From: Escherichia coli
GTDB lineage: Bacteria; Pseudomonadota; Gammaproteobacteria; Enterobacterales; Enterobacteriaceae
Strand: one strand, 5' to 3'
DNA length: 64,000 nt
Assembly (NCBI RefSeq): GCF_001677475.2
Contig: NZ_CP015229.1
The translations under genes and the position numbers were made by a program. Shown one piece after another: positions 7,790 to 64,000 of the stretch. Below the pieces are notes generated by a model, which saw nothing but the letters and a program-made list of their open reading frames with translations, was not told the origin of the DNA and did no database searches. Position 1 is the stretch's first letter, and each line of letters opens with the position of its first letter.

Positions 7790-8474
7790 ACAAGTGATGC
7801 CGGTTAAGCTGGCGCAGGCGCTGGCGAATCCGTTATTTCCGGCGCTGGATAGCGCCTTACGTTCAGGCCGCCATATTGGCCTCGACGAACTGGATAATCA
7901 TGCATTCCTGATGGATTTTCAGGAATATCTGGAAGAGTTTTACGCGCGTTATAACGTTGAGCTTATTCGTGCACCGGAAGGGTTCTTCTATTTACGCCCA
8001 CGTTCCACCACTCTTATTCCTCGTTCCGTCTTGTCGGAACTGGATATGATGGTCGGGAAAATCCTCTGTTATCTCTATCTCAGCCCGGAACGGCTGGCGA
8101 ATGAGGGGATTTTTACTCAACAGGAACTGTACGACGAACTGCTCACCCTGGCCGATGAAGCGAAACTGCTGAAACTGGTGAACAACCGTTCAACCGGTTC
8201 AGACGTTGACCGGCAGAAGTTGCAGGAGAAAGTACGTTCTTCGCTCAACCGTCTGCGTCGTTTGGGCATGGTGTGGTTTATGGGCCACGACAGCAGCAAG
8301 TTCCGCATTACCGAATCGGTGTTCCGCTTCGGAGCCGATGTGCGTGCTGGCGACGATCCCCGTGAAGCACAGCGTCGCCTGATTCGTGATGGCGAAGCAA
8401 TGCCGATTGAAAATCATCTGCAACTCAACGATGAAACCGAAGAGAGTCAGCCAGATAGCGGAGAGGAAGAATAA
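7770..8474 (+). CDS. mukE: Chromosome partition protein MukE
   Basis: ATG at 7770 (MSSTNIEQ) overlapping mukF 3' end; 234 aa. Confidence 0.85.
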
Positions 8475-11400
8475 TGATTGAACGCGGTAAATTTCGCTCA
8501 CTGACGCTGATTAACTGGAACGGTTTTTTTGCCCGAACTTTTGACCTCGATGAGCTGGTTACGACGCTCTCCGGCGGTAACGGGGCGGGTAAATCCACCA
8601 CCATGGCGGCGTTCGTTACGGCGCTGATCCCCGACCTGACCCTGCTGCATTTCCGTAACACCACGGAAGCCGGGGCCACCAGCGGTTCGCGCGATAAAGG
8701 TCTGCACGGTAAGCTGAAAGCGGGTGTCTGTTATTCGATGCTCGACACCATTAACTCGCGCCACCAGCGCGTGGTGGTCGGTGTGCGTCTGCAACAGGTT
8801 GCCGGACGCGATCGTAAAGTGGATATCAAACCGTTTGCCATTCAGGGACTGCCGATGTCGGTGCAGCCGACACAGCTGGTGACCGAAACTCTGAACGAAC
8901 GCCAGGCGCGCGTGCTGCCGCTTAACGAGCTGAAAGACAAGCTCGAGGCGATGGAAGGCGTGCAGTTTAAACAGTTCAACTCCATTACCGATTACCACTC
9001 GCTGATGTTCGATCTGGGCATCATCGCGCGTCGTCTGCGCTCCGCATCTGACCGTAGCAAATTCTATCGTCTGATCGAAGCTTCGCTGTATGGCGGGATC
9101 TCCAGTGCCATTACCCGTTCTCTGCGCGACTACCTGTTGCCGGAAAACAGCGGAGTGCGTAAAGCGTTCCAGGACATGGAAGCGGCACTGCGTGAAAATC
9201 GCATGACGCTGGAAGCGATTCGTGTCACCCAGTCGGACCGTGACCTGTTTAAGCATCTGATCAGCGAAGCCACCAACTACGTGGCGGCGGACTACATGCG
9301 TCACGCCAACGAGCGCCGTGTCCATCTCGACAAAGCCCTGGAGTTTCGTCGCGAGCTACATACTTCGCGTCAGCAACTGGCGGCTGAGCAGTACAAACAC
9401 GTCGATATGGCGCGTGAGCTGGCAGAGCACAACGGTGCCGAAGGCGATCTGGAAGCGGATTATCAGGCGGCCAGCGATCACCTGAACCTGGTGCAAACCG
9501 CACTGCGTCAGCAGGAGAAGATCGAACGCTACGAAGCGGATCTCGATGAGCTGCAGATCCGTCTGGAAGAGCAAAACGAAGTGGTGGCAGAAGCCATCGA
9601 ACGCCAGGAAGAGAATGAGGCTCGTGCGGAAGCTGCCGAACTGGAAGTGGACGAGCTGAAAAGCCAACTTGCTGACTACCAGCAGGCGCTGGACGTCCAG
9701 CAAACGCGCGCGATCCAGTATAACCAGGCGATTGCTGCGCTTAATCGTGCCAAAGAACTGTGCCATCTGCCGGACTTAACCGCCGACAGCGCCGCCGAAT
9801 GGCTGGAAACCTTCCAGGCGAAAGAGCTGGAAGCGACTGAAAAAATGCTCTCTCTTGAGCAGAAAATGAGCATGGCGCAAACCGCGCACAGCCAGTTTGA
9901 GCAGGCTTATCAGCTGGTGGTGGCAATCAACGGCCCGCTGGCGCGTAACGAGGCGTGGGATGTCGCTCGCGAACTGCTGCGCGAAGGGGTCGATCAGCGT
10001 CACCTGGCAGAGCAGGTTCAGCCGTTGCGGATGCGCTTAAGCGAACTGGAACAGCGTCTGCGCGAACAGCAAGAAGCTGAGCGTCTGCTGGCAGATTTCT
10101 GCAAACGTCAGGGCAAGAATTTTGACATTGACGAGCTGGAAGCTCTGCATCAGGAGCTGGAAGCACGCATTGCCTCTCTTTCCGATAGTGTGTCTAACGC
10201 CCGTGAAGAGCGCATGGCACTGCGCCAGGAGCAGGAACAGCTGCAGTCTCGCATTCAGAGTTTGATGCAGCGTGCACCGGTTTGGCTGGCAGCGCAAAAC
10301 AGCCTCAACCAGTTGAGCGAACAGTGCGGCGAAGAGTTCTCTTCCAGCCAGGATGTCACCGAATATCTGCAACAGTTGCTGGAGCGTGAGCGCGAAGCCA
10401 TTGTTGAACGCGATGAAGTAGGCGCGCGCAAAAACGCCGTCGATGAAGAGATCGAACGTTTAAGCCAGCCAGGTGGTTCTGAAGACCAGCGTTTGAATGC
10501 GCTGGCGGAGCGTTTTGGCGGCGTGCTGCTGTCAGAAATTTATGACGACGTTAGCCTGGAAGATGCGCCGTACTTCTCGGCGCTGTATGGCCCGTCCCGC
10601 CACGCCATCGTGGTGCCAGATCTGTCACAGGTAACCGAACACCTGGAAGGTTTGACCGATTGCCCGGAAGATCTCTATCTGATCGAAGGGGATCCGCAGT
10701 CATTCGATGACAGCGTGTTCAGCGTTGATGAGCTGGAAAAAGCGGTGGTGGTGAAAATCGCCGATCGTCAGTGGCGTTACTCACGTTTTCCGGAAGTGCC
10801 GCTGTTTGGACGCGCGGCGCGCGAAAGCCGCATCGAAAGCCTCCATGCCGAGCGTGAAGTGCTTTCCGAACGCTTCGCCACGCTCTCCTTTGATGTACAG
10901 AAAACCCAGCGTCTGCATCAGGCGTTCAGCCGCTTTATCGGCAGCCATCTGGCGGTGGCGTTTGAGTCTGATCCGGAAGCCGAAATCCGTCAACTGAACA
11001 GCCGTCGCGTCGAACTGGAGCGGGCGTTGAGTAATCATGAAAATGATAACCAGCAGCAGCGTATTCAGTTTGAGCAGGCGAAAGAGGGTGTTACGGCGCT
11101 GAACCGCATTCTGCCGCGTCTCAACCTGTTGGCTGATGATAGCCTGGCAGATCGCGTCGATGAAATCCGCGAACGTCTGGATGAAGCCCAGGAAGCCGCG
11201 CGTTTTGTTCAGCAGTTTGGCAATCAACTGGCGAAACTGGAACCGATCGTTTCGGTATTGCAGAGCGACCCGGAACAGTTCGAACAGTTAAAAGAAGATT
11301 ACGCGTACTCTCAGCAGATGCAGCGCGATGCCCGTCAGCAGGCGTTTGCCCTGACGGAAGTGGTGCAGCGTCGTGCGCACTTTAGCTACTCTGACTCGGC

Positions 11401-12934
11401 AGAAATGCTTAGCGGTAACAGCGATCTCAACGAAAAACTGCGTGAACGTCTGGAACAGGCGGAAGCGGAGCGTACCCGCGCGCGTGAAGCGTTGCGCGGA
11501 CACGCAGCGCAGTTGAGTCAGTACAACCAGGTGCTGGCTTCGCTGAAAAGTTCTTACGACACCAAAAAAGAGCTACTCAACGATCTGCAACGTGAATTGC
11601 AGGATATCGGCGTGCGTGCTGATAGCGGGGCAGAAGAGCGGGCGCGTATTCGCCGTGACGAGTTGCACGCGCAACTGAGCAATAACCGTTCACGCCGCAA
11701 TCAACTGGAAAAAGCGCTTACCTTCTGCGAAGCAGAGATGGACAACCTGACCCGCAAACTGCGCAAGCTGGAGCGGGATTACTTTGAGATGCGCGAGCAG
11801 GTAGTGACCGCGAAAGCGGGCTGGTGTGCAGTCATGCGCATGGTGAAAGATAACGGCGTTGAGCGCCGCTTACACCGTCGTGAGCTGGCTTATCTCTCCG
11901 CTGATGATTTGCGTTCCATGTCGGATAAGGCGTTAGGTGCGCTGCGTCTGGCAGTGGCAGATAACGAACATCTGCGCGATGTGCTGCGCATGTCGGAAGA
12001 TCCAAAACGTCCGGAACGTAAAATTCAGTTCTTCGTGGCGGTTTATCAGCATCTGCGTGAACGTATTCGTCAGGATATTATTCGTACCGATGATCCGGTG
12101 GAAGCTATCGAACAGATGGAGATCGAACTTAGCCGTCTGACCGAAGAGTTAACCTCCCGCGAACAGAAACTGGCGATCAGTTCCCGCAGCGTGGCGAACA
12201 TCATTCGCAAAACCATTCAACGCGAGCAGAACCGTATCCGTATGCTCAACCAGGGCTTGCAGAACGTATCGTTTGGTCAGGTGAACAGCGTGCGCCTCAA
12301 CGTGAACGTGCGTGAAACGCACGCCATGCTGCTGGATGTACTCTCTGAACAGCATGAGCAGCATCAGGATCTGTTTAACAGCAACCGTCTGACCTTCTCG
12401 GAAGCGCTGGCGAAATTGTATCAGCGTCTTAATCCGCAGATTGATATGGGGCAGCGCACGCCGCAGACCATTGGCGAAGAACTGCTGGATTACCGCAACT
12501 ATCTGGAAATGGAAGTTGAGGTTAACCGTGGTTCCGATGGCTGGCTGCGCGCAGAATCTGGCGCTCTGTCGACCGGTGAGGCGATTGGTACCGGTATGTC
12601 GATTCTGGTGATGGTGGTACAAAGCTGGGAAGATGAATCTCGCCGCCTGCGCGGTAAAGATATCTCTCCTTGCCGCCTGCTGTTCCTCGATGAAGCAGCG
12701 CGACTGGATGCTCGTTCTATCGCCACGCTGTTTGAATTGTGTGAACGTTTGCAAATGCAGCTCATCATCGCAGCGCCGGAAAATATCAGTCCGGAAAAAG
12801 GCACCACCTATAAACTGGTGCGTAAAGTCTTCCAGAATACCGAACACGTTCACGTCGTCGGCCTGCGAGGATTTGCGCCGCAACTCCCTGAAACGCTTCC
12901 AGGAAGTGACGAAGCGCCTTCCCAGGCGAGTTAA
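8474..12934 (+). CDS. mukB: Chromosome partition SMC-like ATPase MukB
   Basis: 1486 aa; Walker [10 protein letters not shown]; long coiled-coil middle; Walker B LLFLDEA at C-terminus. Confidence 0.95.
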
Positions 12935-13194: not shown

Positions 13195-15041
13195 ATGTTG
13201 CTTAATATGATGTGTGGTCGTCGGCTGTCGGCAATCAGTTTGTGCCTGGCCGTAACATTCGCTCCACTGTTCAATGCGCAGGCCGATGAGCCTGAAGTAA
13301 TCCCTGGCGACAGCCCGGTGGCTGTCAGTGAACAGGGCGAGGCACTGCCGCAGGCGCAAGCCACGGCAATTATGGCGGGGATCCAGCCATTGCCTGAAGG
13401 TGCGGCAGAAAAAGCCCGCACGCAAATCGAATCTCAATTACCCGCAGGTTATAAGCCGGTTTATCTTAACCAGCTTCAACTGTTGTATGCCGCACGCGAT
13501 ATGCAACCCATGTGGGAAAACCGTGATGCTGTTAAAGCCTTCCAGCAACAGCTGGCAGAGGTGGCGATTGCCGGTTTCCAGCCGCAGTTTAATAAATGGG
13601 TAGAGTTACTGACCGATCCTGGTGTTAACGGGATGGCACGCGACGTGGTGCTCTCTGATGCAATGATGGGCTATCTCCATTTCATTGCAAATATTCCGGT
13701 CAAAGGCACTCGCTGGCTATATAGCAGTAAACCTTACGCGCTTTCAACGCCGCCGCTCTCGGTGATTAACCAATGGCAACTGGCGCTGGATAAAGGTCAA
13801 TTGCCGACGTTTGTTGCAGGTCTGGCACCGCAGCATCCGCAATATGCAGCGATGCATGAATCGTTACTGGCCTTACTCAGTGACACCAAACCGTGGCCCC
13901 AACTGACCGGCAAAGCAACGTTGCGCCCAGGGCAGTGGAGTAACGACGTACCGGCGTTGCGCGAAATATTGCAACGCACAGGCATGTTGGACGGGGGCCG
14001 AAAATTACGCTGCCTGGCGATGACACGCCAACTGACGCGGTAGTCAGCCCATCCGCTGTTACTGTTGAAACAGCAGAAACTAAGCCGATGGACAAGCAAA
14101 CGACGTCTCGTAGTAAACCTGCGCCTGCCGTTCGTGCTGCCTACGATAATGAACTGGTGGAAGCCGTTAAACGTTTTCAGGCATGGCAAGGATTGGGGGC
14201 AGATGGTGCTATTGGCCCGGCAACGAGGGACTGGTTAAACGTAACGCCCGCCCAGCGTGCAGGCGTGTTGGCACTCAACATCCAGCGATTGCGCTTGCTG
14301 CCAACAGAGCTTTCTACCGGGATCATGGTTAACATTCCGGCCTATTCGCTGGTTTATTATCAGAACGGCAATCAGGTACTGGATTCGCGAGTCATTGTCG
14401 GTCGCCCCGATCGCAAAACGCCGATGATGAGCAGTGCCCTTAACAACGTAGTGGTAAACCCGCCGTGGAACGTACCACCAACTCTGGCACGCAAAGATAT
14501 TCTGCCGAAAGTGCGCAACGATCCGGGATATCTCGAAAGCCATGGCTATACGGTGATGCGCGGCTGGAACAGCAGAGAAGCGATTGACCCATGGCAGGTT
14601 GACTGGTCTACAATCACGGCCTCGAATTTACCGTTCCGCTTCCAGCAGGCTCCAGGCCCACGGAACTCGCTGGGTCGCTATAAATTCAATATGCCGAGTT
14701 CAGAGGCCATTTATTTGCATGACACGCCGAACCACAATCTGTTCAAGCGTGATACACGCGCATTGAGCTCAGGCTGTGTACGAGTGAATAAAGCTTCCGA
14801 TCTGGCGAATATGCTGTTGCAGGATGCAGGCTGGAATGACAAACGTATTTCTGATGCGCTGAAGCAGGGTGATACACGTTACGTCAATATTCGGCAGTCG
14901 ATTCCGGTGAATCTCTACTACCTGACGGCCTTTGTTGGTGCAGATGGTCGTACCCAGTATCGTACAGATATTTACAATTATGATCTGCCTGCGCGATCCA
15001 GCTCGCAAATCGTATCGAAAGCGGAACAATTAATCAGGTAA
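13195..15041 (+). pseudogene. ldtD: L,D-transpeptidase LdtD (YcbB) interrupted by -1 frameshift in a G-run at 13993-13997; fragments 13195-14043 and 14088-15041
   Basis: Two adjacent ORFs in different frames; the second frame is open upstream back across the first ORF's stop and reads the expected continuation; restoring one G gives a 615-aa product; catalytic YkuD domain ([16 protein letters not shown]) lies in the downstream fragment. Confidence 0.8.
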
Positions 15042-22595: not shown

Positions 22596-25208
22596 ATGAC
22601 TCAACAGCCACAAGCCAAATACCGTCACGATTATCGTGCGCCGGATTACCAGATTACTGATATTGACTTGACCTTTGACCTCGACGCGCAAAAGACGGTC
22701 GTTACCGCGGTCAGCCAGGCTGTCCGTCATGGTGCATCAGATGCTCCGCTTCGTCTCAACGGCGAAGACCTCAAACTGGTTTCTGTTCATATTAATGATG
22801 AGCCGTGGACCGCCTGGAAAGAAGAAGAGGGCGCACTGGTCATCAGTAATTTGCCGGAGCATTTTACGCTTAAGATCGTTAATGAAATTAGCCCGGCGGC
22901 GAATACTGCGCTGGAAGGGCTTTATCAGTCAGGCGATGCGCTTTGCACCCAGTGTGAAGCCGAAGGTTTCCGCCACATTACGTATTATCTCGACCGCCCG
23001 GACGTGCTGGCGCGTTTTACCACCAAAATTATTGCCGATAAAACCAAATATCCCTTCCTGCTTTCCAACGGTAACCGCGTTGCGCAAGGCGAACTGGAAA
23101 ACGGACGTCACTGGGTACAGTGGCAGGACCCGTTCCCGAAACCGTGCTACCTGTTTGCGCTGGTGGCAGGCGACTTCGACGTGCTGCGCGACACCTTTAC
23201 CACGCGTTCTGGTCGCGAAGTAGCACTGGAGCTGTTCGTCGATCGCGGCAACCTTGATCGCGCGCCGTGGGCGATGACCTCGCTGAAAAACTCAATGAAA
23301 TGGGATGAAGAGCGCTTCGGCCTGGAGTATGACCTCGACATCTATATGATCGTCGCGGTGGACTTCTTTAATATGGGCGCAATGGAGAATAAAGGTCTGA
23401 ATATCTTTAACTCCAAATATGTGCTGGCCCGTACCGACACCGCCACCGATAAAGATTACCTCGATATTGAGCGTGTTATTGGTCACGAATATTTCCACAA
23501 CTGGACCGGTAACCGTGTGACCTGCCGCGACTGGTTCCAGCTCAGCCTGAAAGAAGGTTTAACCGTCTTCCGCGATCAGGAGTTCAGCTCTGACCTTGGT
23601 TCCCGTGCAGTTAACCGCATCAATAATGTGCGCACCATGCGCGGATTGCAGTTTGCGGAAGACGCCAGCCCGATGGCGCATCCAATCCGCCCGGATATGG
23701 TCATTGAGATGAACAACTTCTACACCCTGACCGTTTACGAGAAGGGCGCGGAAGTGATTCGCATGATCCACACCCTGCTTGGCGAAGAAAACTTCCAGAA
23801 AGGGATGCAGCTCTATTTCGAGCGCCATGATGGCAGCGCGGCAACCTGCGACGACTTTGTTCAGGCGATGGAAGATGCGTCGAATGTCGATCTCTCTCAT
23901 TTCCGCCGTTGGTACAGCCAGTCCGGTACGCCGGTTGTGACCGTCAAAGACGACTATAATCCGGAAACAGAGCAGTACACCCTGACCATCAGCCAGCGCA
24001 CGCCAGCTACGCCGGATCAGGCAGAAAAACAACCGCTGCATATTCCGTTTGCCATCGAACTGTATGATAACGAAGGCAAAGTGATCCCGTTGCAGAAAGG
24101 CGGCCATCCGGTGAATTCCGTGCTGAACGTCACCCAGGCGGAACAGACCTTTGTCTTTGATAATGTCTACTTCCAGCCGGTGCCTGCGCTGCTGTGCGAA
24201 TTCTCTGCGCCAGTGAAACTGGAATATAAGTGGAGCGATCAGCAACTGACCTTCCTGATGCGTCATGCGCGTAATGATTTCTCCCGTTGGGATGCGGCGC
24301 AAAGCCTGCTGGCAACCTACATCAAGCTGAACGTCGCGCGTCATCAGCAAGGTCAGCCGCTGTCTCTGCCAGTGCATGTGGCCGACGCTTTCCGCGCGGT
24401 ACTGCTTGATGAGAAGATTGATCCGGCTCTGGCGGCAGAAATCCTGACGCTGCCTTCCGTCAATGAAATGGCTGAACTGTTCGATATCATCGACCCGATT
24501 GCTATTGCCGAAGTACGCGAAGCACTCACTCGTACTCTGGCGACTGAACTGGCGGATGAGCTGCTGGCTATTTACAACGCGAATTACCAGAGCGAGTACC
24601 GCGTTGAGCATGAAGATATTGCAAAACGCACTCTGCGTAATGCCTGCCTGCGTTTCCTCGCTTTTGGTGAAACGCATCTGGCTGATGTGCTGGTGAGCAA
24701 GCAGTTCCACGAAGCAAACAATATGACTGATGCGCTGGCGGCGCTTTCTGCGGCGGTTGCTGCACAGCTGCCTTGCCGTGACGCGCTGATGCAGGAGTAC
24801 GACGACAAGTGGCATCAGGATGGTCTGGTGATGGATAAATGGTTTATCCTGCAAGCCACCAGCCCGGCGGCGAATGTGCTGGAGACGGTGCGTGGCCTGT
24901 TGCAGCATCGCTCATTTACCATGAGCAACCCGAACCGTATTCGTTCGTTGATTGGTGCGTTTGCGGGCAGCAACCCGGCAGCGTTCCATGCCGAAGATGG
25001 CAGCGGTTACCAGTTCCTGGTGGAAATGCTTACCGACCTCAACAGCCGTAACCCGCAGGTGGCTTCACGCCTGATTGAGCCGCTGATTCGCCTGAAACGT
25101 TACGATGCCAAACGTCAGGAGAAAATGCGCGCGGCGCTGGAGCAGTTGAAAGGGCTGGAAAATCTCTCTGGCGATCTGTACGAGAAGATCACCAAAGCAC
25201 TGGCTTAA
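22596..25208 (+). CDS. pepN: Aminopeptidase N (M1 zinc metallopeptidase)
   Basis: 870 aa; GAMEN motif and HEYFHNWTGN...E zinc-binding motif. Confidence 0.95.
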   Translation: MTQQPQAKYRHDYRAPDYQITDIDLTFDLDAQKTVVTAVSQAVRHGASDAPLRLNGEDLKLVSVHINDEPWTAWKEEEGALVISNLPEHFTLKIVNEISPAANTALEGLYQSGDALCTQCEAEGFRHITYYLDRPDVLARFTTKIIADKTKYPFLLSNGNRVAQGELENGRHWVQWQDPFPKPCYLFALVAGDFDVLRDTFTTRSGREVALELFVDRGNLDRAPWAMTSLKNSMKWDEERFGLEYDLDIYMIVAVDFFNMGAMENKGLNIFNSKYVLARTDTATDKDYLDIERVIGHEYFHNWTGNRVTCRDWFQLSLKEGLTVFRDQEFSSDLGSRAVNRINNVRTMRGLQFAEDASPMAHPIRPDMVIEMNNFYTLTVYEKGAEVIRMIHTLLGEENFQKGMQLYFERHDGSAATCDDFVQAMEDASNVDLSHFRRWYSQSGTPVVTVKDDYNPETEQYTLTISQRTPATPDQAEKQPLHIPFAIELYDNEGKVIPLQKGGHPVNSVLNVTQAEQTFVFDNVYFQPVPALLCEFSAPVKLEYKWSDQQLTFLMRHARNDFSRWDAAQSLLATYIKLNVARHQQGQPLSLPVHVADAFRAVLLDEKIDPALAAEILTLPSVNEMAELFDIIDPIAIAEVREALTRTLATELADELLAIYNANYQSEYRVEHEDIAKRTLRNACLRFLAFGETHLADVLVSKQFHEANNMTDALAALSAAVAAQLPCRDALMQEYDDKWHQDGLVMDKWFILQATSPAANVLETVRGLLQHRSFTMSNPNRIRSLIGAFAGSNPAAFHAEDGSGYQFLVEMLTDLNSRNPQVASRLIEPLIRLKRYDAKRQEKMRAALEQLKGLENLSGDLYEKITKALA

Positions 25209-28918: not shown

Positions 28919-29486
28919 GGGCATTACCTCGCAGAGACAGAAGATCGGGAACCTGAACATCGCGGCGGTGCAGCGCCTGCCAGAAAGTTTCCAGCGCGGT
29001 ATCAAGACGGGTTTGCAGATTTGGCGTGAACTGCGGCTTGTGGTGGTAATCAATCACCTGTGAGTCATCGGCAAACACGCCGTGCAGGATCTCCTGGGCT
29101 TTCAGCGCACTTAAAACTGGCTTAAGGGCATAATCGACCGCCAGCAGATGGGCCACCGTACCGCCCGTCGCCAGCGGTAGCACCACTTTGCCTTGCAACG
29201 CACGTTCTGGCAGCAGGTCGAGCAGGGTTTTCAGCGCACCGGAATAGGCGGCTTTATACACAGGCGTGGCGACAATCAGCCCATCGGCCTGTTGCAGCTG
29301 TTCGGTGAAGGTTTTGAGTGCCGGACTATCGAAACGAGCATAAAGTAGATCTTCCGGGGCGAAGTTTTGCAGATTCCAGTGATAAACCTCTACATCCAGG
29401 CCATTTAGTTTTTCCCGCGCATATTCCAGCAAGGAGCTGGAACGAGAAGGAAAGCGAGGACTACCCGCCAGGGTGATGACACGCAT
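28911..29486 (-). CDS. ssuE: NAD(P)H-dependent FMN reductase
   Basis: 191 aa; first gene of the ssuEADCB operon; overlaps ssuA start. Confidence 0.85.
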   Translation of the reverse strand: MRVITLAGSPRFPSRSSSLLEYAREKLNGLDVEVYHWNLQNFAPEDLLYARFDSPALKTFTEQLQQADGLIVATPVYKAAYSGALKTLLDLLPERALQGKVVLPLATGGTVAHLLAVDYALKPVLSALKAQEILHGVFADDSQVIDYHHKPQFTPNLQTRLDTALETFWQALHRRDVQVPDLLSLRGNAHA

Positions 29487-29687
29487 ACTCTCTCCTTATA
29501 ACCAATTGTTCTTGTTTTGTTAACATTGATAACAATTCGGTCAGTCTGACAGAGGGCGTCCGCGAGTCGAAATGATTTATCTGAGGAAGAAAAGCCAAAA
29601 AAAGCATAAAAAAAGCGCAATAAGAAAACGTTTGCTATTTATTGCCACAGGTCAATTCCCTTTTGGTCCGAACTCGCACATAATACG

Positions 29688-29722
29688 CCCCCGGTTTGCA
29701 CACCGGGAATCCAGGAGAGTTC
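29688..29722 (+). promoter_or_regulatory. pyrD leader hairpin and Shine-Dalgarno
   Basis: cccgg-tttgcaca-ccggg hairpin immediately 5' of AGGAG SD and pyrD ATG; pyrimidine-dependent leader control is a recalled mechanism, not shown by the sequence. Confidence 0.5.
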
Positions 29723-30733
29723 ATGTACTACCCCTTCGTTCGTAAAGCCCTTTTCCAGCTCGATCCAGAGCGCGCTCATGAGTTTACTTTTCAGCAATTA
29801 CGCCGCATTACCGGAACACCGTTTGAAGCACTGGTGCGGCAGAAAGTGCCTGCGAAACCTGTTAACTGCATGGGCCTGACGTTTAAAAATCCGCTTGGTC
29901 TGGCAGCCGGTCTTGATAAAGACGGGGAGTGCATTGATGCGTTAGGTGCGATGGGATTTGGATCGATCGAGATCGGTACCGTCACGCCACGTCCACAGCC
30001 TGGTAATGACAAGCCGCGTCTCTTTCGTCTGGTAGATGCCGAAGGTTTGATCAACCGTATGGGCTTTAATAATCTTGGCGTTGATAACCTCGTAGAGAAC
30101 GTAAAAAAGGCCCATTATGACGGCGTCCTGGGTATTAACATCGGCAAAAATAAAGATACGCCAGTGGAGCAGGGCAAAGATGACTATCTGATTTGTATGG
30201 AAAAAATCTATGCCTATGCGGGATATATCGCTATCAATATTTCATCGCCAAATACCCCAGGATTACGCACTCTGCAATATGGTGAAGCGCTGGATGATCT
30301 CTTAACTGCGATTAAAAATAAGCAAAATGATTTGCAAGCGATGCACCATAAATATGTGCCGATCGCAGTGAAGATCGCGCCGGATCTTTCTGAAGAAGAA
30401 TTGATCCAGGTTGCCGATAGTTTAGTTCGCCATAATATTGATGGCGTTATTGCAACCAATACCACACTCGATCGTTCTCTGGTTCAGGGAATGAAAAATT
30501 GCGATCAAACCGGTGGCTTAAGTGGTCGTCCGCTTCAGTTAAAAAGCACCGAAATTATTCGCCGCTTGTCACTGGAATTAAACGGTCGCTTACCGATCAT
30601 CGGTGTTGGCGGCATCGACTCGGTTATCGCTGCGCGTGAAAAGATTGCTGCGGGTGCCTCACTGGTGCAAATTTATTCTGGTTTTATTTTTAAAGGTCCG
30701 CCGCTGATTAAAGAAATCGTTACCCATATCTAA
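29723..30733 (+). CDS. pyrD: Dihydroorotate dehydrogenase (quinone)
   Basis: ATG at 29723 ([21 protein letters not shown]), 336 aa. Confidence 0.9.
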
Positions 30734-56591: not shown

Positions 56592-56651
56592 TGGCGGAAG
56601 CGCAGAGATTCGAACTCTGGAACCCTTTCGGGTCGCCGGTTTTCAAGACCG
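56592..56651 (-). tRNA. serT: Truncated tRNA-Ser(UGA): 3'-terminal 60 nt only (anticodon loop to CCA); attL copy at prophage junction
   Basis: Minus strand reads CGGTCTTGAAAACCGGCGACCCGAAAGGGTTCCAGAGTTCGAATCTCTGCGCTTCCGCCA; the 5' 28 nt of the recalled serT sequence are replaced by AT-rich prophage DNA. Confidence 0.8.
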
Positions 56652-56792
56652 AAGAAAAATAAAGAAAAATCAGTATAATACGCAAAATAGCCGAAAAGTT
56701 AATCAGACTTAACACCAAGAAAAATCAAGATGTTAGGGAGTTATTCAGAGTTAATATACCAGGTCTTTTTGCCAGAAAATTTTCTGGATTGT

Positions 56793-57812
56793 CTACTTAC
56801 TGACCACAAGCGGCAAATCCAGTGTTGGCGTGATTTTGGTTTTACGATCGTAAATCAACACCTGATTTTCTGTTTTGTGTCCACTGAAAATTTGTTTGTC
56901 GCGACTGCTGCCTTCGTAATCTGAAATCCCTTTGGCTTTTATGTCATGGAAGTTGCACCCAAACGGAACGCCGGCTTTTTGCTCGGCTGCACGTTTAGCC
57001 TGATTCCACCAGTTGTTCAGCGTCTTGGCTATTACCTTCCCGCCTTTGGTTGTGTTGATCACATACTCGCATGTGCCGGAAGATACATTTCGGGCTAACT
57101 GGATCGCCGTACGTAATCGCGGAGACCATTCCTTGATTTGTTTAGTGCCAGTCTTGTTTTGCTCAATGTAAATCCCTTTATCCATAATATCCTGCCATTT
57201 CAGCTCGAGTACATCACCGAGCCTTGCCGCACAAAGATAGGATATCTCCATTGCAATACGTAACTGTGGAATTGCTTCCGCATATATTGCTGCATACTGT
57301 TCATCGGTGATGTAAACAGTACGGGCTTTAAGTGTGAATTTTCTGACACCTTTGCATGGATTATTTTTCACATACCCACGCTCATATCCCCATCCGTATA
57401 CACGGCTCAGACTTGCCAGTTCATGGTTTGCCTGGGTCTTGCTCTCAAGTCCTCGCTTATCCATGAAAATTCTTACCTGTTCAATTTTTACATTATCAGC
57501 AAGCACTTTTCCGAATACTGCCAACAATGCCCTTTGATGTTGCCGATAATCTTTTTGGGTTCGGGGGGCCAGTTCTGTAAATGCAGGGGAGTCCATAAAC
57601 ATGTGCCATAATTTAGCTACTGTCATTATGTTGTGGAGTTTTGCTTTTTCCAGCTCATAATTTTGCCAGACTTTAGCTACGCTGGTTTCCCGCACTCTTC
57701 CGAGCCCTATAGTTCTTGTGCTTCCTTCGGGTTTCCATACGTAACTGTAACCGTTCGATCTAACACGCGGTGGTAGTGCATTATCTTTTTTGTTTTTTCT
57801 TGGTCTTCCCAT
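56793..57812 (-). CDS. int: Tyrosine-type site-specific integrase (lambda Int family)
   Basis: 339 aa; C-terminal catalytic region GHKTENQVLIYDRK resembles lambda Int LLGHKSDTMASQY; 3' end faces the att site. Confidence 0.9.
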   Translation of the reverse strand: MGRPRKNKKDNALPPRVRSNGYSYVWKPEGSTRTIGLGRVRETSVAKVWQNYELEKAKLHNIMTVAKLWHMFMDSPAFTELAPRTQKDYRQHQRALLAVFGKVLADNVKIEQVRIFMDKRGLESKTQANHELASLSRVYGWGYERGYVKNNPCKGVRKFTLKARTVYITDEQYAAIYAEAIPQLRIAMEISYLCAARLGDVLELKWQDIMDKGIYIEQNKTGTKQIKEWSPRLRTAIQLARNVSSGTCEYVINTTKGGKVIAKTLNNWWNQAKRAAEQKAGVPFGCNFHDIKAKGISDYEGSSRDKQIFSGHKTENQVLIYDRKTKITPTLDLPLVVSK

Positions 57813-58032
57813 TGTTCAGCGCCTCAAAATCGGGTTCAGCGGAAACCAGCTCAGGTGCTTTTGGCATCGTTGTCAGTCCGTGTGGAATATCCCTGCGAAG
57901 AACTATTGGTTCGTTTTTAGGACCGATTACAAATGGGATGCCGTGCAGCCTTAACTGGTGTTGCTGTTTTGTGTATCGCTCGTATTTCGTGATCTCTTGA
58001 ATCTCTGCTGGCGATAGAGTTAATTCGTACAT
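57781..58032 (-). CDS. xis: Excisionase-like protein (lambda Xis-like)
   Basis: 83 aa, N-terminus MYELTL and basic C-terminal tail KTKKKQKR resemble lambda Xis; overlaps int start by 32 nt. Confidence 0.6.
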   Translation of the reverse strand: MYELTLSPAEIQEITKYERYTKQQHQLRLHGIPFVIGPKNEPIVLRRDIPHGLTTMPKAPELVSAEPDFEALNNGKTKKKQKR

Positions 58033-58098
58033 GTGGTCACGTGCCTTACAGCATGACCGCCGCCAATATAATTCGGAGACGGCGATCAGGGGTGAACA

Positions 58099-60549
58099 TT
58101 AAAAATCAACCGGATTCGGGATCAGTTTTTGCCAGATTGCTGAAACGTATTTTGCCTGGTAACGAGCGTCATCAAGTGCATTATGGCGCTCACCTTCGAA
58201 TGGGATAGCTGTTCTGGCATCGAAGTCTATGGCTTTCCCCAGCTCAACGATTGTGCGTACATCGCGATCGTTGCAGTAGCGCCAAGGGCAGGGGATACCC
58301 TGTCGTTCGTATGAACGGCGTAAAATCACGTTGTCGAAGTTGGCCCCATTACCCCAGACCTGAACAAAAAATTCACCGGAGTTTTCGTCGATAAATTCCC
58401 GCAATTGCAGCAGTGCATCATCTAACGGGATTTCATCGGTCAGAATGGCAGATTGCGCCTCGCGTGATTGCTTAAGCCACCATTTTATGGTGTCACGATT
58501 AATGACTCCGCCAGCAGTTTCCAGATCGATGGTCTTACTAAATTCCGGCCCCATATCTCCGGTTTGCGGATCGAAAAATATTGCACCTATTGAGATAATC
58601 GGGGCATCGGGATTTTTTCCCATGGTTTCAAGGTCGATCATAAGATGGTCACATGACCTGCTTGTGGATGTGATATTGTGATAACCGTTCACCTTAATTA
58701 AGGGATCTGTTGCTTCGCCAGTTTCATTATCGCTGGCGTGATGCTGATTGCCTCCAGTGTTCTCCTTGTGTGGATGTTCAGCGCCTTCCATTTCCTCCGG
58801 ATCATTCTCCTGAGCTTCAACCTGATTCTCTTCATCGAATGTTTCCTGGTATGTTGCGTTTCCCATGACCGCGCCACAGTCAGGACAGTTGCCGCCGCTG
58901 CTCTGACCGCAGACGGTGCAGACTTTTTCCGGTTCCTGTTGCACTACTGGTTCGGATTGTTTCGTTTCTGGTTCGTTTTGTTGCGCATTTGGGCTGTTTT
59001 GTTCCGCTTTCTGGTCGTTCTGTGCCGTTTCTTGCTGGTTCTGGTTCACAGAATCGCGGGTTTCAATCCCCTTCACCCATTTCGGATCATTCGGGTCGCT
59101 AATCCCTGCAACAAATTCACCACGTGATGCAGCGAGCAACTGACTGGCGTCAGGCAGGCTGATATTGGCTGCCTGCATAATTTTGTTTACTTCGTCAGCG
59201 GTAACTTTTACCTGATTAACCGGATCTATCTGTGCCTGAGTATCCAGCGATTGCGTGTCCTGGCGAAGTTCAGTTGTATCCGGCTCCATTGCTTCAGTCG
59301 TTGCCTGTTCATCTGCCATTGCGTCAGACGGTTGTGATTTTTCATCATTATTTTTTTCTTCTTCTGTTTCGCGTTTAGCAGCCAGTTCGCGGTTAACTTC
59401 TTCCTGGATATCTTTTTCCGGTGTATGTCGTGCAGCAGCGAGAGTTTCTTCGGTAGGGTTCTCGTGATCAGTCTCCGTTAAGTGGGCGTTGATATACTCC
59501 TGAAGGCGTCCCGGGTAGAGATAAAGTTCAGGGTGAGCACTTCGGATAAGTGCAAAAATAGCGGCACGGGAATAATCCAGAATACCAGGGGTTGCGCGAA
59601 GTGCTGCGGACCATTCTTTGAACGGACTTTCTTTCTTCCGGACGACTTCTTTTGCGCGACGATAAACGCTGCCCGGAATTTCATAAATATTAAAATCCAT
59701 CGGAAGTGTGGCCGCTGCAATCTCCACATCCAGCGTATCGAAGGTGTGTACTAAATTCGGATTGCGATCGGTTTTGTTCCCGCCGCCAGCATTAGCACCG
59801 GAAGCCGTGCGGATGATGCGTGAAACACGATTCCCCTTCATCCACTCTTTTGTAAGCAGACCGCGATCGGTGTAGTCAGCGCCCAGGTATGCTTCGAAAA
59901 AAGCAGTCATCAGTCCCAGGTCTGAATTGCCAGGATTAGGGAAAACTTTGTCAGTGTCACGAACCAGTTTGTGGAGATCGCGAATTTCCAGCGGTTCGAG
60001 TTGCGCTGCTTTATTTGAGATGGCCAGCGCGGTAACGGCGGGAAGTTTTTCATCCTGTGCGTTATGTAATGCGCGCAGTTCGCCCCGCGAAACGTGAGTG
60101 ATCGGTTTTTCGCTGCCGTGCTGAGCAAGCCAGCGAATGGGAAGTATCTGGCCAGAAACCGGGAGTAGCATATTCTCCTCAATATCAGTCATGTCTTCGC
60201 CGTTGACGTTGGTATTGTCAGTGCTGGCTGGTTTATCCTGAACAGAGGGCGCGATAAATACCATTGTGATACCATCTTCCCCGCCTTTTTCGTATCGGTT
60301 GCAGAATTCGGTATCAAACACACCTTCCGGAGGCAGGTCATTCACAACGGGTAAATGGACGCGGACGGGTTTTTTAAAGTCGTCTTCATCATAATCGTTG
60401 TCATCCATTGCGGTAATACAACGGGAGATGGCAACAGATAATTTTTTTGCTGTGGTCCAGTAAAAACCACCTTTAATTCCCAGGCGTTTTCTGACTTTGT
60501 CATTTTTTGCTTCGCAATATAGCGCAAATTCTTCTTTTTCAGTGCTCAT
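58099..60549 (-). CDS. Large prophage protein: unknown N-terminal domain, acidic/Gln-rich low-complexity linker, CxxC-x9-CxxC zinc ribbon, C-terminal DnaQ-like (DEDDh) 3'-5' exonuclease domain
   Basis: 816 aa; exonuclease motifs IDLETMG (Exo I), WGNGANFDNVIL (Exo II), HNALDDARY (Exo III) in last ~185 aa (about 58102-58656); SD GAGG 7 nt upstream of ATG. Confidence 0.75.
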   Translation of the reverse strand: MSTEKEEFALYCEAKNDKVRKRLGIKGGFYWTTAKKLSVAISRCITAMDDNDYDEDDFKKPVRVHLPVVNDLPPEGVFDTEFCNRYEKGGEDGITMVFIAPSVQDKPASTDNTNVNGEDMTDIEENMLLPVSGQILPIRWLAQHGSEKPITHVSRGELRALHNAQDEKLPAVTALAISNKAAQLEPLEIRDLHKLVRDTDKVFPNPGNSDLGLMTAFFEAYLGADYTDRGLLTKEWMKGNRVSRIIRTASGANAGGGNKTDRNPNLVHTFDTLDVEIAAATLPMDFNIYEIPGSVYRRAKEVVRKKESPFKEWSAALRATPGILDYSRAAIFALIRSAHPELYLYPGRLQEYINAHLTETDHENPTEETLAAARHTPEKDIQEEVNRELAAKRETEEEKNNDEKSQPSDAMADEQATTEAMEPDTTELRQDTQSLDTQAQIDPVNQVKVTADEVNKIMQAANISLPDASQLLAASRGEFVAGISDPNDPKWVKGIETRDSVNQNQQETAQNDQKAEQNSPNAQQNEPETKQSEPVVQQEPEKVCTVCGQSSGGNCPDCGAVMGNATYQETFDEENQVEAQENDPEEMEGAEHPHKENTGGNQHHASDNETGEATDPLIKVNGYHNITSTSRSCDHLMIDLETMGKNPDAPIISIGAIFFDPQTGDMGPEFSKTIDLETAGGVINRDTIKWWLKQSREAQSAILTDEIPLDDALLQLREFIDENSGEFFVQVWGNGANFDNVILRRSYERQGIPCPWRYCNDRDVRTIVELGKAIDFDARTAIPFEGERHNALDDARYQAKYVSAIWQKLIPNPVDF

Positions 60550-60639
60550 TGATAAACCTCATTACAGATTTAAGGGTGAACAAATCCCTGCCATTGCTGG
60601 CATATAAAAATGAAACCGGATATTTATTACTGTGCTGTT

Positions 60640-60831
60640 TTAAAGTCCTGCCGGGACTTCGTTATTATCCATGCGAATAACTTTATCGACCGGATAACAG
60701 TTACCGGGAATTTTTTGTTCTGCTGCGGCAGCCATGCATTCTTTCATTGAACCGTATAAGCCAGTCACCAGCTCAAGAGATTCGCCGGAAACAAGATAAA
60801 CTGTCAGAACGAGTGCAAATGTTGTATTCAT
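60640..60831 (-). CDS. Hypothetical small protein (63 aa) with hydrophobic N-terminal segment
   Basis: ATG preceded by AAGGA SD; start overlaps upstream stop (ATGA); sequence MNTTFALVLTVYLVSG suggests signal/TM segment. Confidence 0.55.
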   Translation of the reverse strand: MNTTFALVLTVYLVSGESLELVTGLYGSMKECMAAAAEQKIPGNCYPVDKVIRMDNNEVPAGL

Positions 60832-61016
60832 TGTTTATATCCTTTTTGCCGCAGGTCCAGACGAGCCAGCATTGAAGGAATGCATACTTCATTTAACAGG
60901 TCCTGCTCGAGTGTTCTCTGCTTAATGGCGTCTTCAATAAATGTTTTGTCTCCGGTGATAACGCCAATTTCGAAACGAAGTTCAGACGTACTGGCATTGC
61001 ATGATAACTTTTCCAT
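60828..61016 (-). CDS. Hypothetical small protein (62 aa)
   Basis: ATG preceded by GAGGA SD at 7-nt spacing; translationally coupled to downstream 63-aa gene. Confidence 0.55.
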   Translation of the reverse strand: MEKLSCNASTSELRFEIGVITGDKTFIEDAIKQRTLEQDLLNEVCIPSMLARLDLRQKGYKQ

Positions 61017-61033
61017 TATCGCGTCCTCAACAA

Positions 61034-61186
61034 TGAATTTTGTGATGCGGTGCCTGGTGCCTCCAGGTGACGTTAACCAGTTAACAATTAACGCCGGAGT
61101 ATTTCACGTTACGCCAGTAAAGGACCGCTTTACTGTTTTAACTGTTCCGCGTGCGCTTAGCCGCATTCACCGCATCACAAAATTCA
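61034..61186. repeat. 19-bp perfect inverted repeat (TGAATTTTGTGATGCGGTG / CACCGCATCACAAAATTCA) flanking a 115-bp hairpin-rich spacer
   Basis: Arms at 61034-61052 and 61168-61186; spacer holds nested hairpins cctgg-tgcct-ccagg, cgttaa...ttaacg and cagtaaag-gaccg-ctttactg; no ORF over 26 aa on the minus strand across 61017-61573. Confidence 0.7.
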
Positions 61187-61573
61187 CTTTAAAAAGGGCG
61201 GACATCAGCCAGCAATGAAAACTGATGCCGCCAAAGGTACCAATCAACATGGAGTGTTGCGGCGGGGTTGTCACTCAGGCGTATGGTCAACCTGACAACC
61301 CGGTGTCACCAGTGGGGGTAAGGAAAACCCCGCCATACTTACCGCCGCGCCATTTCGCGGAGTGCCACAACCGGAAGCGCACGGTCGACGAAAATTTAAC
61401 GACAGGCTATCTATGAACCATAAACCTCGCCGTGCGCTTTCGCGTTATGCCCTGACTTTTCAGGGAAATATCCTTTCAGTAAACTGTCAGTGCCGGATGT
61501 TCACCCGTGTCCGGCGCACGCACTCCACCTCACCCGTGGAGAACCCCTTAATTACCAACCCTCAGGAGAGTGA

Positions 61574-61807
61574 ATGTTAAAATCAACTCTTATTGCTAAA
61601 TGCCTTTATCAAAATCGCATGGTAAGCAGCATTTCAATAGGCGAGTCTGCAGTTAAAAGTATTTTCGAAGAGTTCTTTCCCGGGCATGATTTTAATAAAT
61701 GGAATACCAAATTACCGCCAGCAGTTTCAACGCGTATTCTGAAAGCAACTGAAAGAGCAAGTACAATTCGCGTTAACTATTTCATTAAAGATTTGTGGGA
61801 TCTTTGA
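61574..61807 (+). CDS. Hypothetical AT-rich small protein (77 aa), opposite orientation to neighbours
   Basis: ATG preceded by AGGAGA SD; low GC relative to surroundings; 3' end overlaps convergent 135-aa gene by 23 bp. Confidence 0.45.
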   Translation: MLKSTLIAKCLYQNRMVSSISIGESAVKSIFEEFFPGHDFNKWNTKLPPAVSTRILKATERASTIRVNYFIKDLWDL

Positions 61808-62192
61808 TATCCACAGAGCCTAAAGTATGTGCATATGGATGTGCTATTGTGCGCCCTCGCAGATTTGCATCATTTTCTAAATTCACTGAACGAAACAGGG
61901 CATCAACAAGGCTCTGTACAATGCAAAGGCAATCGAAGACTGTCGCTGTTTCTGTTTTGATTGATGAAAGAACATGGCCATTCACGCAAACAGAAATTAC
62001 CCGTTCATTAACATCGCTTTCCTGCTTTTGATTATCAGAACTATATAGCCCAGAAAAAGCATTGCGCACATTATGAACCATATTATCGATGGTTTCTTTT
62101 TCTACGGTACTCAGGTCAAGAGTCGCCAGTTGAGAACGAACTATATTCGCTGCCATTTCCTGGAATGGTACTGGTAAATCTTTAAATTCCAT
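61785..62192 (-). CDS. Hypothetical protein (135 aa; alternative start at 62204 gives 139 aa)
   Basis: ATG at 62192 with GAGG 6 nt upstream; upstream gene stop TGA lies within the ribosome-binding region, implying coupling; no recognisable motif. Confidence 0.6.
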   Translation of the reverse strand: MEFKDLPVPFQEMAANIVRSQLATLDLSTVEKETIDNMVHNVRNAFSGLYSSDNQKQESDVNERVISVCVNGHVLSSIKTETATVFDCLCIVQSLVDALFRSVNLENDANLRGRTIAHPYAHTLGSVDIKDPTNL

Positions 62193-62207
62193 CGTCAACC
62201 TCATCAG

Positions 62208-62423
62208 TCAGTGGTTTTCAATCTCTCGTGAAACGTTTAATGCCGCGCTTTTTGCCAGAGTGGTAATATCCAGCTCCGCTGACGCCAGTTCTTTAGAGAG
62301 GTGCTCTTTGTTGTTAGCAGCCTGTTTCAGGTCATTAATGGCGCGTATCTTCCCGAACATCCATTCGTAAATTTCATCATCGGTATAGCCTGGTGCGATG
62401 ATGGTGGGTTCTGGTTTCTGCAT
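62208..62423 (-). CDS. Hypothetical protein (71 aa)
   Basis: ATG at 62423 preceded by AAGGAG at 5-nt spacing (track ORF starts at an upstream GTG, 62462); first gene of a two-gene coupled unit. Confidence 0.6.
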   Translation of the reverse strand: MQKPEPTIIAPGYTDDEIYEWMFGKIRAINDLKQAANNKEHLSKELASAELDITTLAKSAALNVSREIENH

Positions 62424-62515
62424 GTCAGCTCCTTGTGGTTCGCATTGCCTGCTTTTAACCACGTCAGGCGAGGTGGTATCCTCTGAGGGGTCTGTTACTC
62501 GAGAGGAAATTGGTT

Positions 62516-62716
62516 ATGAATACAATCAAGTTTTCTTGCCCAGAATGTGGTGGCGAAGTCTTTGACACATCCTTTAAGCCGCAGGGCTCTGACAGTTTCG
62601 CGGGAGCCATCTGCAAAAATTGTGGTCACCTTGTAACTGAAGATGAGTCCTCGCAGTTCGATGACGAAATCGTTGATAATATCTTCGGCGCACTCACCAG
62701 AGATTTCCTGAAGTAA
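62516..62716 (+). CDS. Small zinc-ribbon protein (66 aa)
   Basis: CPEC-x19-CKNC motif; GAGAGGA SD 8 nt upstream of ATG; divergent from the 71-aa gene with 92-bp shared upstream region; fewer rare codons than the overlapping antisense ORF. Confidence 0.5.
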   Translation: MNTIKFSCPECGGEVFDTSFKPQGSDSFAGAICKNCGHLVTEDESSQFDDEIVDNIFGALTRDFLK

Positions 62717-63030
62717 AAGCGCATGCCGTTTAGTTACCGCTCTGATCATTCTTACTTGTCCGGTAATGGCGCTGACATCAGTATAAAGCGCCATTGCTGC
62801 TTCTTTGCCGATCCCAGGATGCCTTCCATTCTGATGTTTGACTTCGCCCACTGAGAAATCCTCTGTTTCCCCTTAACGCCGGGGTAGCGGAACAAAAACC
62901 TGCTGCATAGTTAAAGTTGAACCCTGCCGTCATGTTCTTACGCCTCGGGCTGGCTACTTAACCCCTGACCACTGCCTGGTAACTCGAAGTATTGCCCTGC
63001 GTTTTGTGGGGCGGGGTGGGTTAGTAAAAA

Positions 63031-63052
63031 TAGTTTATACAAAAATAAACTA
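63031..63052. repeat. 22-bp palindrome TAGTTTATACAAAAATAAACTA (candidate operator or structural site)
   Basis: Perfect 8-bp arms around a 6-bp AT core, in the 400-bp non-coding gap between the zinc-ribbon gene and the ParE-like gene. Confidence 0.5.
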
Positions 63053-63116
63053 AACAGTCAATATGCAACTTAACTCTTTGGCGAGGATAACCCCTGTTGA
63101 GAGGGGCTTCGGGGGA

Positions 63117-63404
63117 TTAAGGTGTTACAGGGAACTGTCGGCGGGCGTGAACTACGCTAACAATTTCAATGCCTGAAATTGTCACGCGGTATAGAATTAT
63201 GTAATTGGGGTGAGCAACAATTTCACGCAAACCCGGAACTCTGTCGCTTGGCGGGTATAAATACGGATGCTCAGATAATGGCAGGACGCAAGTCCTTAAG
63301 CGTTTCCACAAACGTTCTGCCGCATCTATATCAAAACGAGCAATATAGCTAGTTATATCATCCAAGTCGGCATCTGCGCTTTCGAGCCATAAAACCGGTA
63401 ACAT
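63117..63404 (-). CDS. parE: ParE/RelE-family toxin
   Basis: 95 aa; family pattern (LPVLWLESADADLDDITSYIA ... PGLREIVAHPNYIILYRVTISGIEIVSVVHARR); start abuts antitoxin stop (TAAATG). Confidence 0.8.
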   Translation of the reverse strand: MLPVLWLESADADLDDITSYIARFDIDAAERLWKRLRTCVLPLSEHPYLYPPSDRVPGLREIVAHPNYIILYRVTISGIEIVSVVHARRQFPVTP

Positions 63405-63596
63405 TTACTGCTTGCTCCGTTCCTTGCGCATGTTAGCAAAGCGTTCAGCCATTCTGCGTTCAACTTCGTCATGTGGGATGGCTGGACGTGGATCAGCAAG
63501 GCTTGCGGCCACTTTTGCACGCAGCCATTCGTTATAACTATTTTCTTGCTCGATGGTTTCAAATTCAGAAACCATTGGTGAAAGGGCTGTGTTCAT
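63405..63596 (-). CDS. Small antitoxin (63 aa), PaaA-like partner of the ParE-like toxin
   Basis: ATG at 63596 with GAGG SD; immediately upstream of toxin; size and position as in recalled three-component paaR-paaA-parE modules. Confidence 0.7.
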   Translation of the reverse strand: MNTALSPMVSEFETIEQENSYNEWLRAKVAASLADPRPAIPHDEVERRMAERFANMRKERSKQ

Positions 63597-63631
63597 GGCG
63601 AACCTCGTTTTGTAAGTGCTGGTAATTCTGC

Positions 63632-64000
63632 CTAGGTAACTTTTTGTTGTGCTGCTAGCCACCTTGCAACTATACGATCCATTGTCTCTTTTTTTTCCTT
63701 CATATCTTTAAGTATTTGCTGTTGATCTTCCTCTGGAAATGCCTCAAATGTTTGAAGTAGCTCCTTTTGCTTAGGAGATATTTTTAATATATCCTGTGTT
63801 TTGTCTTCTTTTTCTTCATTTAATGGTAAGAAAAACCAATGTTGGGGAAAACCCGTTACTTCAGATAGTTTATCTAGATTAGCTGCTGTAGGGCTTGATA
63901 TACCACAAACCCACCTTTGGACGGATTGTTGAGCAATACCAATTCTGCGCGCAAGCTCTGCTTGACTCCAGCCTTTTTCTAATAGAAGCATCTTAATTCT
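63632..64000 (-). CDS. HTH XRE-family transcriptional regulator (PaaR-like), 5' end beyond window
   Basis: Helix-turn-helix signature GWSQAELARRIGIAQQSVQRW; frame open to window edge; 35 bp upstream of the antitoxin gene. Confidence 0.75.
   Translation of the reverse strand, partial: RIKMLLLEKGWSQAELARRIGIAQQSVQRWVCGISSPTAANLDKLSEVTGFPQHWFFLPLNEEKEDKTQDILKISPKQKELLQTFEAFPEEDQQQILKDMKEKKETMDRIVARWLAAQQKVT

Follow-up and report, generated by a model that had tools for sequence, protein, structure and literature searches.

The ldtD locus and its two reading frames

The window, a 64,000-nt stretch of Escherichia coli DNA, carries the ldtD (ycbB) gene on the plus strand at 13195–15041. At 1847 nt, the gene lacks a single base of the 1848 nt that an intact copy has. 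It aligned over its full length with the annotated ldtD genes of complete E. coli genomes at 98.9% identity. Its flanks, mukB (8474–12934) upstream and mepK/ycbK, gloC/ycbL and aspC downstream, follow the order of annotated E. coli chromosomes. Against the NCBIfam LdtD equivalog NF007891 (cutoff 425), the N-terminal and C-terminal fragments scored 449 and 698 bits, respectively, and covered profile positions 1–273 and 300–617. The repaired protein matched the crystal structure of E. coli YcbB (PDB 6NTW) over residues 31–615, with two substitutions, S184A and S229C. The family score, the domain architecture with its His and Cys residues, and the mukB-mepK position all place the gene in the LdtD/YcbB equivalog. 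The scores, the 6NTW match and the mukB-ldtD-mepK-gloC-aspC synteny thus bear out the first-pass annotation, which had named the gene ldtD/ycbB.

The ORF that begins at ATG 13195 extends to 14043 and encodes 282 residues. It reads through Gly267-Gly268, the codons that hold the frameshift site: a run of five G (13993–13997, plus strand) that, according to the sequence and genome 30-mer counts, is contracted from a canonical run of six. Translation then continues into 14 wrong residues and stops at a premature TAG (14041–14043), tail and stop codon spanning 13999–14043 on the same strand. The original ldtD frame resumes at CCG 13998 and is open as far as the normal stop at 15039–15041. This segment (13998–15041, plus strand) comprises codons 269–615 and the stop, and translates as PKITLPGDD... 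to ...AEQLIR. The first start codon in the downstream frame is ATG 14088 (Met299), from which the ORF list gives the longest possible C-terminal ORF (14088–15041, plus strand; 317 aa), a product that has no signal peptide. No Shine-Dalgarno motif was found in the 20 nt upstream of Met299.

Alignments to intact ldtD copies contained exactly one indel in 1848 nt; it falls in the G run, and no second indel compensates for it. The lesion thus has the form of a homopolymer-slippage pseudogene, in which a single-base change in run length, here G6 to G5, is left uncompensated. Insertion of one G gave a gene of 1848 nt encoding 615 residues. The reading of both frames, the repair and the alignments agree with the earlier claims that a frameshift in a G5 homopolymer splits ldtD and that a single inserted G yields a 1848-nt, 615-aa gene.

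A signal peptide was read from the sequence at residues 1–30 (13195–13284, plus strand), followed by DEPEV; the cleavage site is a predicted one, and the 6NTW construct starts at residue 31. According to a Pfam scan of the repaired protein, the Scaffold domain (PF20142, residues 93–224; 13471–13866, plus strand) is kept in the N-terminal product. The PG_binding_1 domain (PF01471, residues 313–348; 14130–14237, plus strand) and the YkuD catalytic domain with His509 and Cys528 (PF03734, residues 376–542; 14319–14819, plus strand) lie in the shifted frame. Cys528, the catalytic nucleophile of LdtD (PMC12729407), is encoded by TGT at 14775–14777, in the downstream frame. The break at codon 268/269 therefore parts the signal peptide and Scaffold domain from PG_binding_1 and YkuD, and these domain coordinates uphold the proposal that the signal peptide is separated from the catalytic domain. 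No single ORF in the window joins the two.

The gene resembles ldtD of E. coli K-12 in locus, synteny, Scaffold/PG_binding_1/YkuD architecture and His509/Cys528. By contrast, K-12 has G6 where the window has G5, which leaves a truncated reading of 282 aa and a catalytic half that is out of frame. Overall, the window gene is ldtD by descent and, as written, is predicted to be non-functional. A functional periplasmic LdtD enzyme would not be expected from this allele, because the catalytic half lacks a signal peptide and Met299 lacks a Shine-Dalgarno motif. On at least 1000 public contigs in which ldtD is broken, the exact 317-aa C-terminal product is listed as a gene of its own, and this fragment has a named record in S. 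sonnei 3226-85.

LdtD is a Cpx-induced L,D-transpeptidase that makes 3-3 (mDAP-mDAP) cross-links; cells with impaired LPS export and the beta-lactam bypass strain M1 cannot do without it (PMC6428754, PMC12729407, PMC9794725). The survival of E. coli with severe LPS-export defects depends on the enzyme (PMC6428754), as does YcbB-mediated beta-lactam bypass (PMC9794725, PMC12729407). Under standard conditions, however, LdtD is dispensable, and 3-3 cross-links are made by LdtE as well (PMC12729407). The first-pass annotation had suggested that loss of LdtD could matter phenotypically. In view of the dispensability of LdtD and the activity of LdtE, that suggestion is somewhat overstated. A real lesion would make the strain a naturally occurring ldtD null, in which the stress-inducible L,D-transpeptidase is gone and LdtE is the sole source of 3-3 cross-links. 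Its relevance would then be restricted to phenotyping of this strain's envelope stress.

The missing base and the age of the lesion

To define the ancestral state of the tract, exact 30-mers spanning it were counted in 5,426 complete E. coli genomes. The G6-bearing 30-mer, GGACGGGGGGCCGAAA, occurred in 3,987 of them, including K-12, BL21 and O157:H7. Its G5 counterpart occurred in two, O145 RM12275-C1 and ATCC 43886. Strain WP4-S18-ESBL-07, the best overall match to the first 25 kb of the window, carries G6, as do all ten intact loci that were retrieved for encoding the identical repaired protein. Strain A30 reads GGGGGACC, a GGGGGA-type allele that differs from the window by a single indel. 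The A30 alignment had first hinted that an A was lost. This was ruled out by the G6 majority and by the identical-protein loci, all of which are G6; GGGGGA is a minority synonymous allele. Because the exact 30-mer counts show G6 to be the majority state, a contraction from G6 to G5 is the most economical reading of the lesion, as the earlier claim of one G missing from the run had it.

An intact LdtD with exactly the sequence of the repaired 615-aa protein is recorded in 5,992 blocks of a public collection. At the nucleotide level, the window gene differed from intact loci encoding the identical protein at 23–30 positions, and all of the differences were synonymous. Twelve substitutions were private to the window gene when it was compared with the ten intact references; all 12 were synonymous in the original frame and 8 lay downstream of the break. 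By a rough estimate, ∼70–75% of random substitutions would be non-synonymous. Under neutrality, the probability that 8 of 8 are synonymous is ∼1e-4 to 1e-5, a rough estimate of our own. Neither an excess of non-synonymous changes nor any lesion besides the G-run indel, the marks of relaxed selection, was found in the window gene. Purifying selection was, on this pattern, maintained on ldtD through essentially the whole private history of the lineage. Because all of the private substitutions are synonymous, including the 8 past the break, the frameshift is either very recent or not real.

The exact 282-aa product was absent among ∼15 billion proteins, with three alternative start codons tried, and a scan of species-representative genomes did not find the G5 junction. 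By these searches, the G5 allele of the window appears to be private, a singleton.

The quality of the surrounding assembly was assessed against the closest references. Positions 1–25000 of the window differed from them by 340 SNPs and 5 indel columns, and positions 25001–50000 by 244 SNPs and no indels. Strain MEW showed zero indels against the window over 25 kb. A second reference, L013, showed four indel columns besides that of ldtD in 25 kb, all intergenic. The ldtD indel alone among the 5 columns across 50 kb lies in a coding sequence. Polarised against other genomes, the other four sites all carry states that are common in E. coli, and the ldtD indel is accordingly the only private one in the 50 kb. 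The first 50 kb contain a single other G6 run, at ∼21012; it has the majority length (5,121 of 5,426 genomes), and none of the 62 homopolymers of at least 6 nt carries a private change. The genes neighbouring ldtD are all intact. Systematic under-calling of homopolymers in the window was ruled out by the common states of the four other indel sites.

Alleles of other strains and the origin of the G5 run

The lesion is of an ordinary type, and an identical one is already annotated in public genomes and so is already known. PGAP annotates ldtD as "frameshifted" in both ATCC 43886 (NZ_CP024256.1) and O145 RM12275-C1 (NZ_CP031341.1), in which, as in the window, the tract is G5 and ldtD is split into 282 + 317 aa. 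The backgrounds differ, however: RM12275-C1 ldtD has 23 differences from that of the window, and the out-of-frame tails of the window, ATCC 43886 and RM12275-C1 vary, reading RKLRC versus RKLRY or RKLLY. The events in the window and in these two strains are therefore independent. The neighbours of ldtD are intact in ATCC 43886, and intact O145:H28 sister strains carry G6. In RM12275-C1, ldtD and gloC are both annotated as frameshifted within 2 kb, and both are intact in sister O145:H28 genomes. This suggests that the RM12275-C1 record holds residual homopolymer errors.

In a wider sample of carriers, N-terminal frameshift alleles occurred on 200, 160, 24, 20, 7, 3 and 1 contigs, counts that are not genome frequencies, as the longest contigs were read first and the sample is biased towards long-read assemblies. 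One allele was a contraction from G5 to G4 on the GGGGGA background. Among carriers with intact neighbours in clean, short-read-type assemblies, G5 was found on at least 3–4 haplotypes with 56–111 differing positions over 5.8 kb, and one G5 haplotype recurred almost unchanged in three independent datasets. Clonal G5 draft lineages (alleles P0016 and P0017; for example, E. coli K71 and STEC_DG131-3) share the tract, the split and the intact neighbours with the window. P0016/P0017-type alleles are present on 160–200 contigs of independent projects and are confirmed to be heritable, whereas the window allele is a singleton.

Many multi-megabase carrier assemblies have mukB, mepK, gloC and aspC also broken into several ORFs. 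Flanks fragmented in this way surround ldtD at loci L004–L008, L010, L011, L030–L032, L034, L036, L040 and L042–L047. Such assemblies look like unpolished long-read homopolymer miscalls, which inflate the apparent number of ldtD pseudogenes. The first-pass annotation had allowed for either a sequencing artefact or slipped-strand variation, and the public data contain both heritable G5 alleles and likely miscalls. The G6 tract of ldtD is best regarded as a hotspot for real mutation and, equally, for error. Because it is truly prone to mutation and is also often miscalled in long-read data, ldtD pseudogene calls need confirmation from the reads before any interpretation.

Two further G5 carriers, L003 and L009 (GCA_002968185.1, CP026814.1), have IS1 and IS4-family transposase genes in place of mukB directly upstream of ldtD, and L003 also has an IS66-family transposase. 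This arrangement shows that IS elements have rearranged a Shigella-like genome. Both loci differ from the window by 28–29 SNPs in ldtD. A literature search for ldtD/ycbB pseudogenes in E. coli or Shigella found no paper. The one related statement it yielded is that ynhG (ldtE) is a pseudogene in Salmonella Typhi (PMC8815878), a case in which an enterobacterial lineage has, likewise, naturally lost one of its two L,D-transpeptidases for 3-3 cross-linking. The S. Typhi case involves a different species and the other of the two paralogues, and the loss there is fixed, in a host-restricted serovar, whereas the window lesion is private and undecayed.

We consider it somewhat probable that the window carries a real ldtD loss-of-function allele, very recent in evolutionary terms, that arose by slippage, the base being presumably missing from the strain's DNA. 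Slipped-strand mispairing during replication would have contracted the G6 of codons 267–268 to G5. Ribosomes would then leave the ldtD frame after Gly268, add the 14 unrelated residues and stop at TAG 14041–14043. The exported product would consist of the signal peptide and scaffold domain only, and the PG-binding and YkuD domains would be left untranslated or, if translation started at Met299, would remain in the cytoplasm for want of a signal peptide. The cell would probably be without LdtD activity, 3-3 cross-linking would fall back on LdtE, and LdtD-dependent rescue under LPS-export stress would be lost, as would the beta-lactam bypass. An ldtD null would be tolerated because LdtD is dispensable under standard conditions (PMC12729407). 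The competing explanation, a substantial possibility if short of probable, is that ldtD is in fact intact in the strain, with a G6 tract, and that one G was under-called when the consensus was built. Many annotated bacterial pseudogenes are assembly artefacts (PMC11017572). An artefact would account for an allele that no second assembly confirms, for a protein that a single base restores to identity with a very common intact LdtD, and for the private substitutions, since a sequencing error would give the same wholly synonymous pattern on both sides of the break. The site is also often shortened in error-ridden long-read assemblies with fragmented mukB, mepK, gloC and aspC, and of just two complete genomes with G5, one (RM12275-C1) has its frameshifted gloC 2 kb away. 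Against an under-called base, the window shows no general error pattern, its four other indel sites being in shared states; its other G6 run was called at the majority length, with no private change in any of the long homopolymers; and other lineages demonstrably carry the same mutation as a real, heritable allele.

Two further readings were considered. The tract might act as a contingency-like locus with reversible, low-rate ON/OFF switching, the genome having been sampled in the OFF state with G5 revertible to G6. We consider this very unlikely. Phase-variable (contingency) genes with homopolymer tracts occur in Neisseria, Haemophilus and Campylobacter, and ldtD resembles them in that poly-G slippage toggles the frame and is reversible in principle. 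At least five ldtD backgrounds have acquired frameshifts at the tract, one of them the G5-to-G4 contraction on the GGGGGA allele, and the remainder of the window gene is intact, so that gain of a single G would restore it fully. By contrast with the contingency genes, the ldtD tract is 6 nt, short for such a locus, and shows no sign of selection for switching. The OFF state (G5) is present in 2 of 5,426 genomes (∼0.04%) against 3,987 with G6, which fits a rare mutation under purifying selection rather than frequent switching, and the synonymous GGGGGA variant interrupts the run, so tract length is not conserved. Neither a long tract nor frequent ON and OFF states among close relatives, the features that define a contingency locus, was found at ldtD. 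It is equally doubtful that the G6 tract is a recurrent, reversible hotspot used by selection to turn LdtD repeatedly off and on, altering, for example, 3-3 muropeptide content or envelope-stress physiology. We regard leaky recoding as extremely improbable. Here, some ribosomes would slip by −1 past the G run but before the TAG, for example with tRNA-Lys on A_AAA at 14001–14004 (CGA AAA), and produce full-length P269R LdtD with some activity. A −1 shift anywhere in 13944–14040 would restore the frame, the A_AAA tetranucleotide permits perfect re-pairing, and tRNA-Lys is slippery, as in dnaX-type frameshifting. The downstream RNA has a slight folding advantage over shuffled sequences (z = −2.0), but the signal is weak, being matched by 8 of 200 shuffles. 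No canonical X_XXY_YYZ heptamer is present, the orthologues are in one continuous frame, so nothing has been selected for recoding, and we estimate spontaneous slippage at such sites at well below 1%. Given the lack of a heptamer, the single-frame orthologues and the weak downstream fold, a programmed −1 frameshift site was not supported.

Other features of the window

Positions 1–50000 of the window are collinear with E. coli, and the top identity to any of the 5,426 complete E. coli genomes is 98.6–99.0%. The best-matching strains are not the same for the two halves of this region. The window appears to come from an E. coli lineage that has rarely been sampled or is a mosaic. No IS elements were found over its first 50 kb. 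A Shigella origin was not supported, given the collinearity with E. coli, the lack of IS elements over 50 kb and the distance of 28–29 ldtD SNPs to the IS-flanked loci L003 and L009.

The genes ssuE and pyrD are adjacent in the window, ∼210 bp apart (29486–29723). The ∼7-kb elfADCG-ycbUVF fimbrial operon, which lies between them in K-12 MG1655, is absent in the window and in strain MEW. A PyrD leader (Rfam RF02373) is located at 29655–29728.

No tRNA genes were detected anywhere in the window; the 3' part alone of a tRNA-Ser gene (serT) lies at ∼56594–56650, downstream of yccA. The serT remnant is followed by a tyrosine integrase gene (56793–57812, minus strand), then by a DUF4224-like ORF and by an exodeoxyribonuclease VIII-like ORF of 816 aa with a long acidic/Gln-rich insert (58099–60549, minus strand). 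A DicA-like repressor is encoded at 63632–63991 on the minus strand. The region 56594–64000 resembles a lambdoid prophage that has inserted into serT, with an intact copy of the tRNA presumably at the far end of the prophage, beyond the window. A gene for a RelB-family antitoxin (63405–63662, minus strand; 84.6 bits against a cutoff of 50) lies directly upstream of one for a RelE/StbE-like toxin (63117–63404, minus strand; 22.4 bits, under the cutoff of 27.9), the two spanning 63117–63662 on that strand. They look like a type II toxin-antitoxin pair within the prophage.
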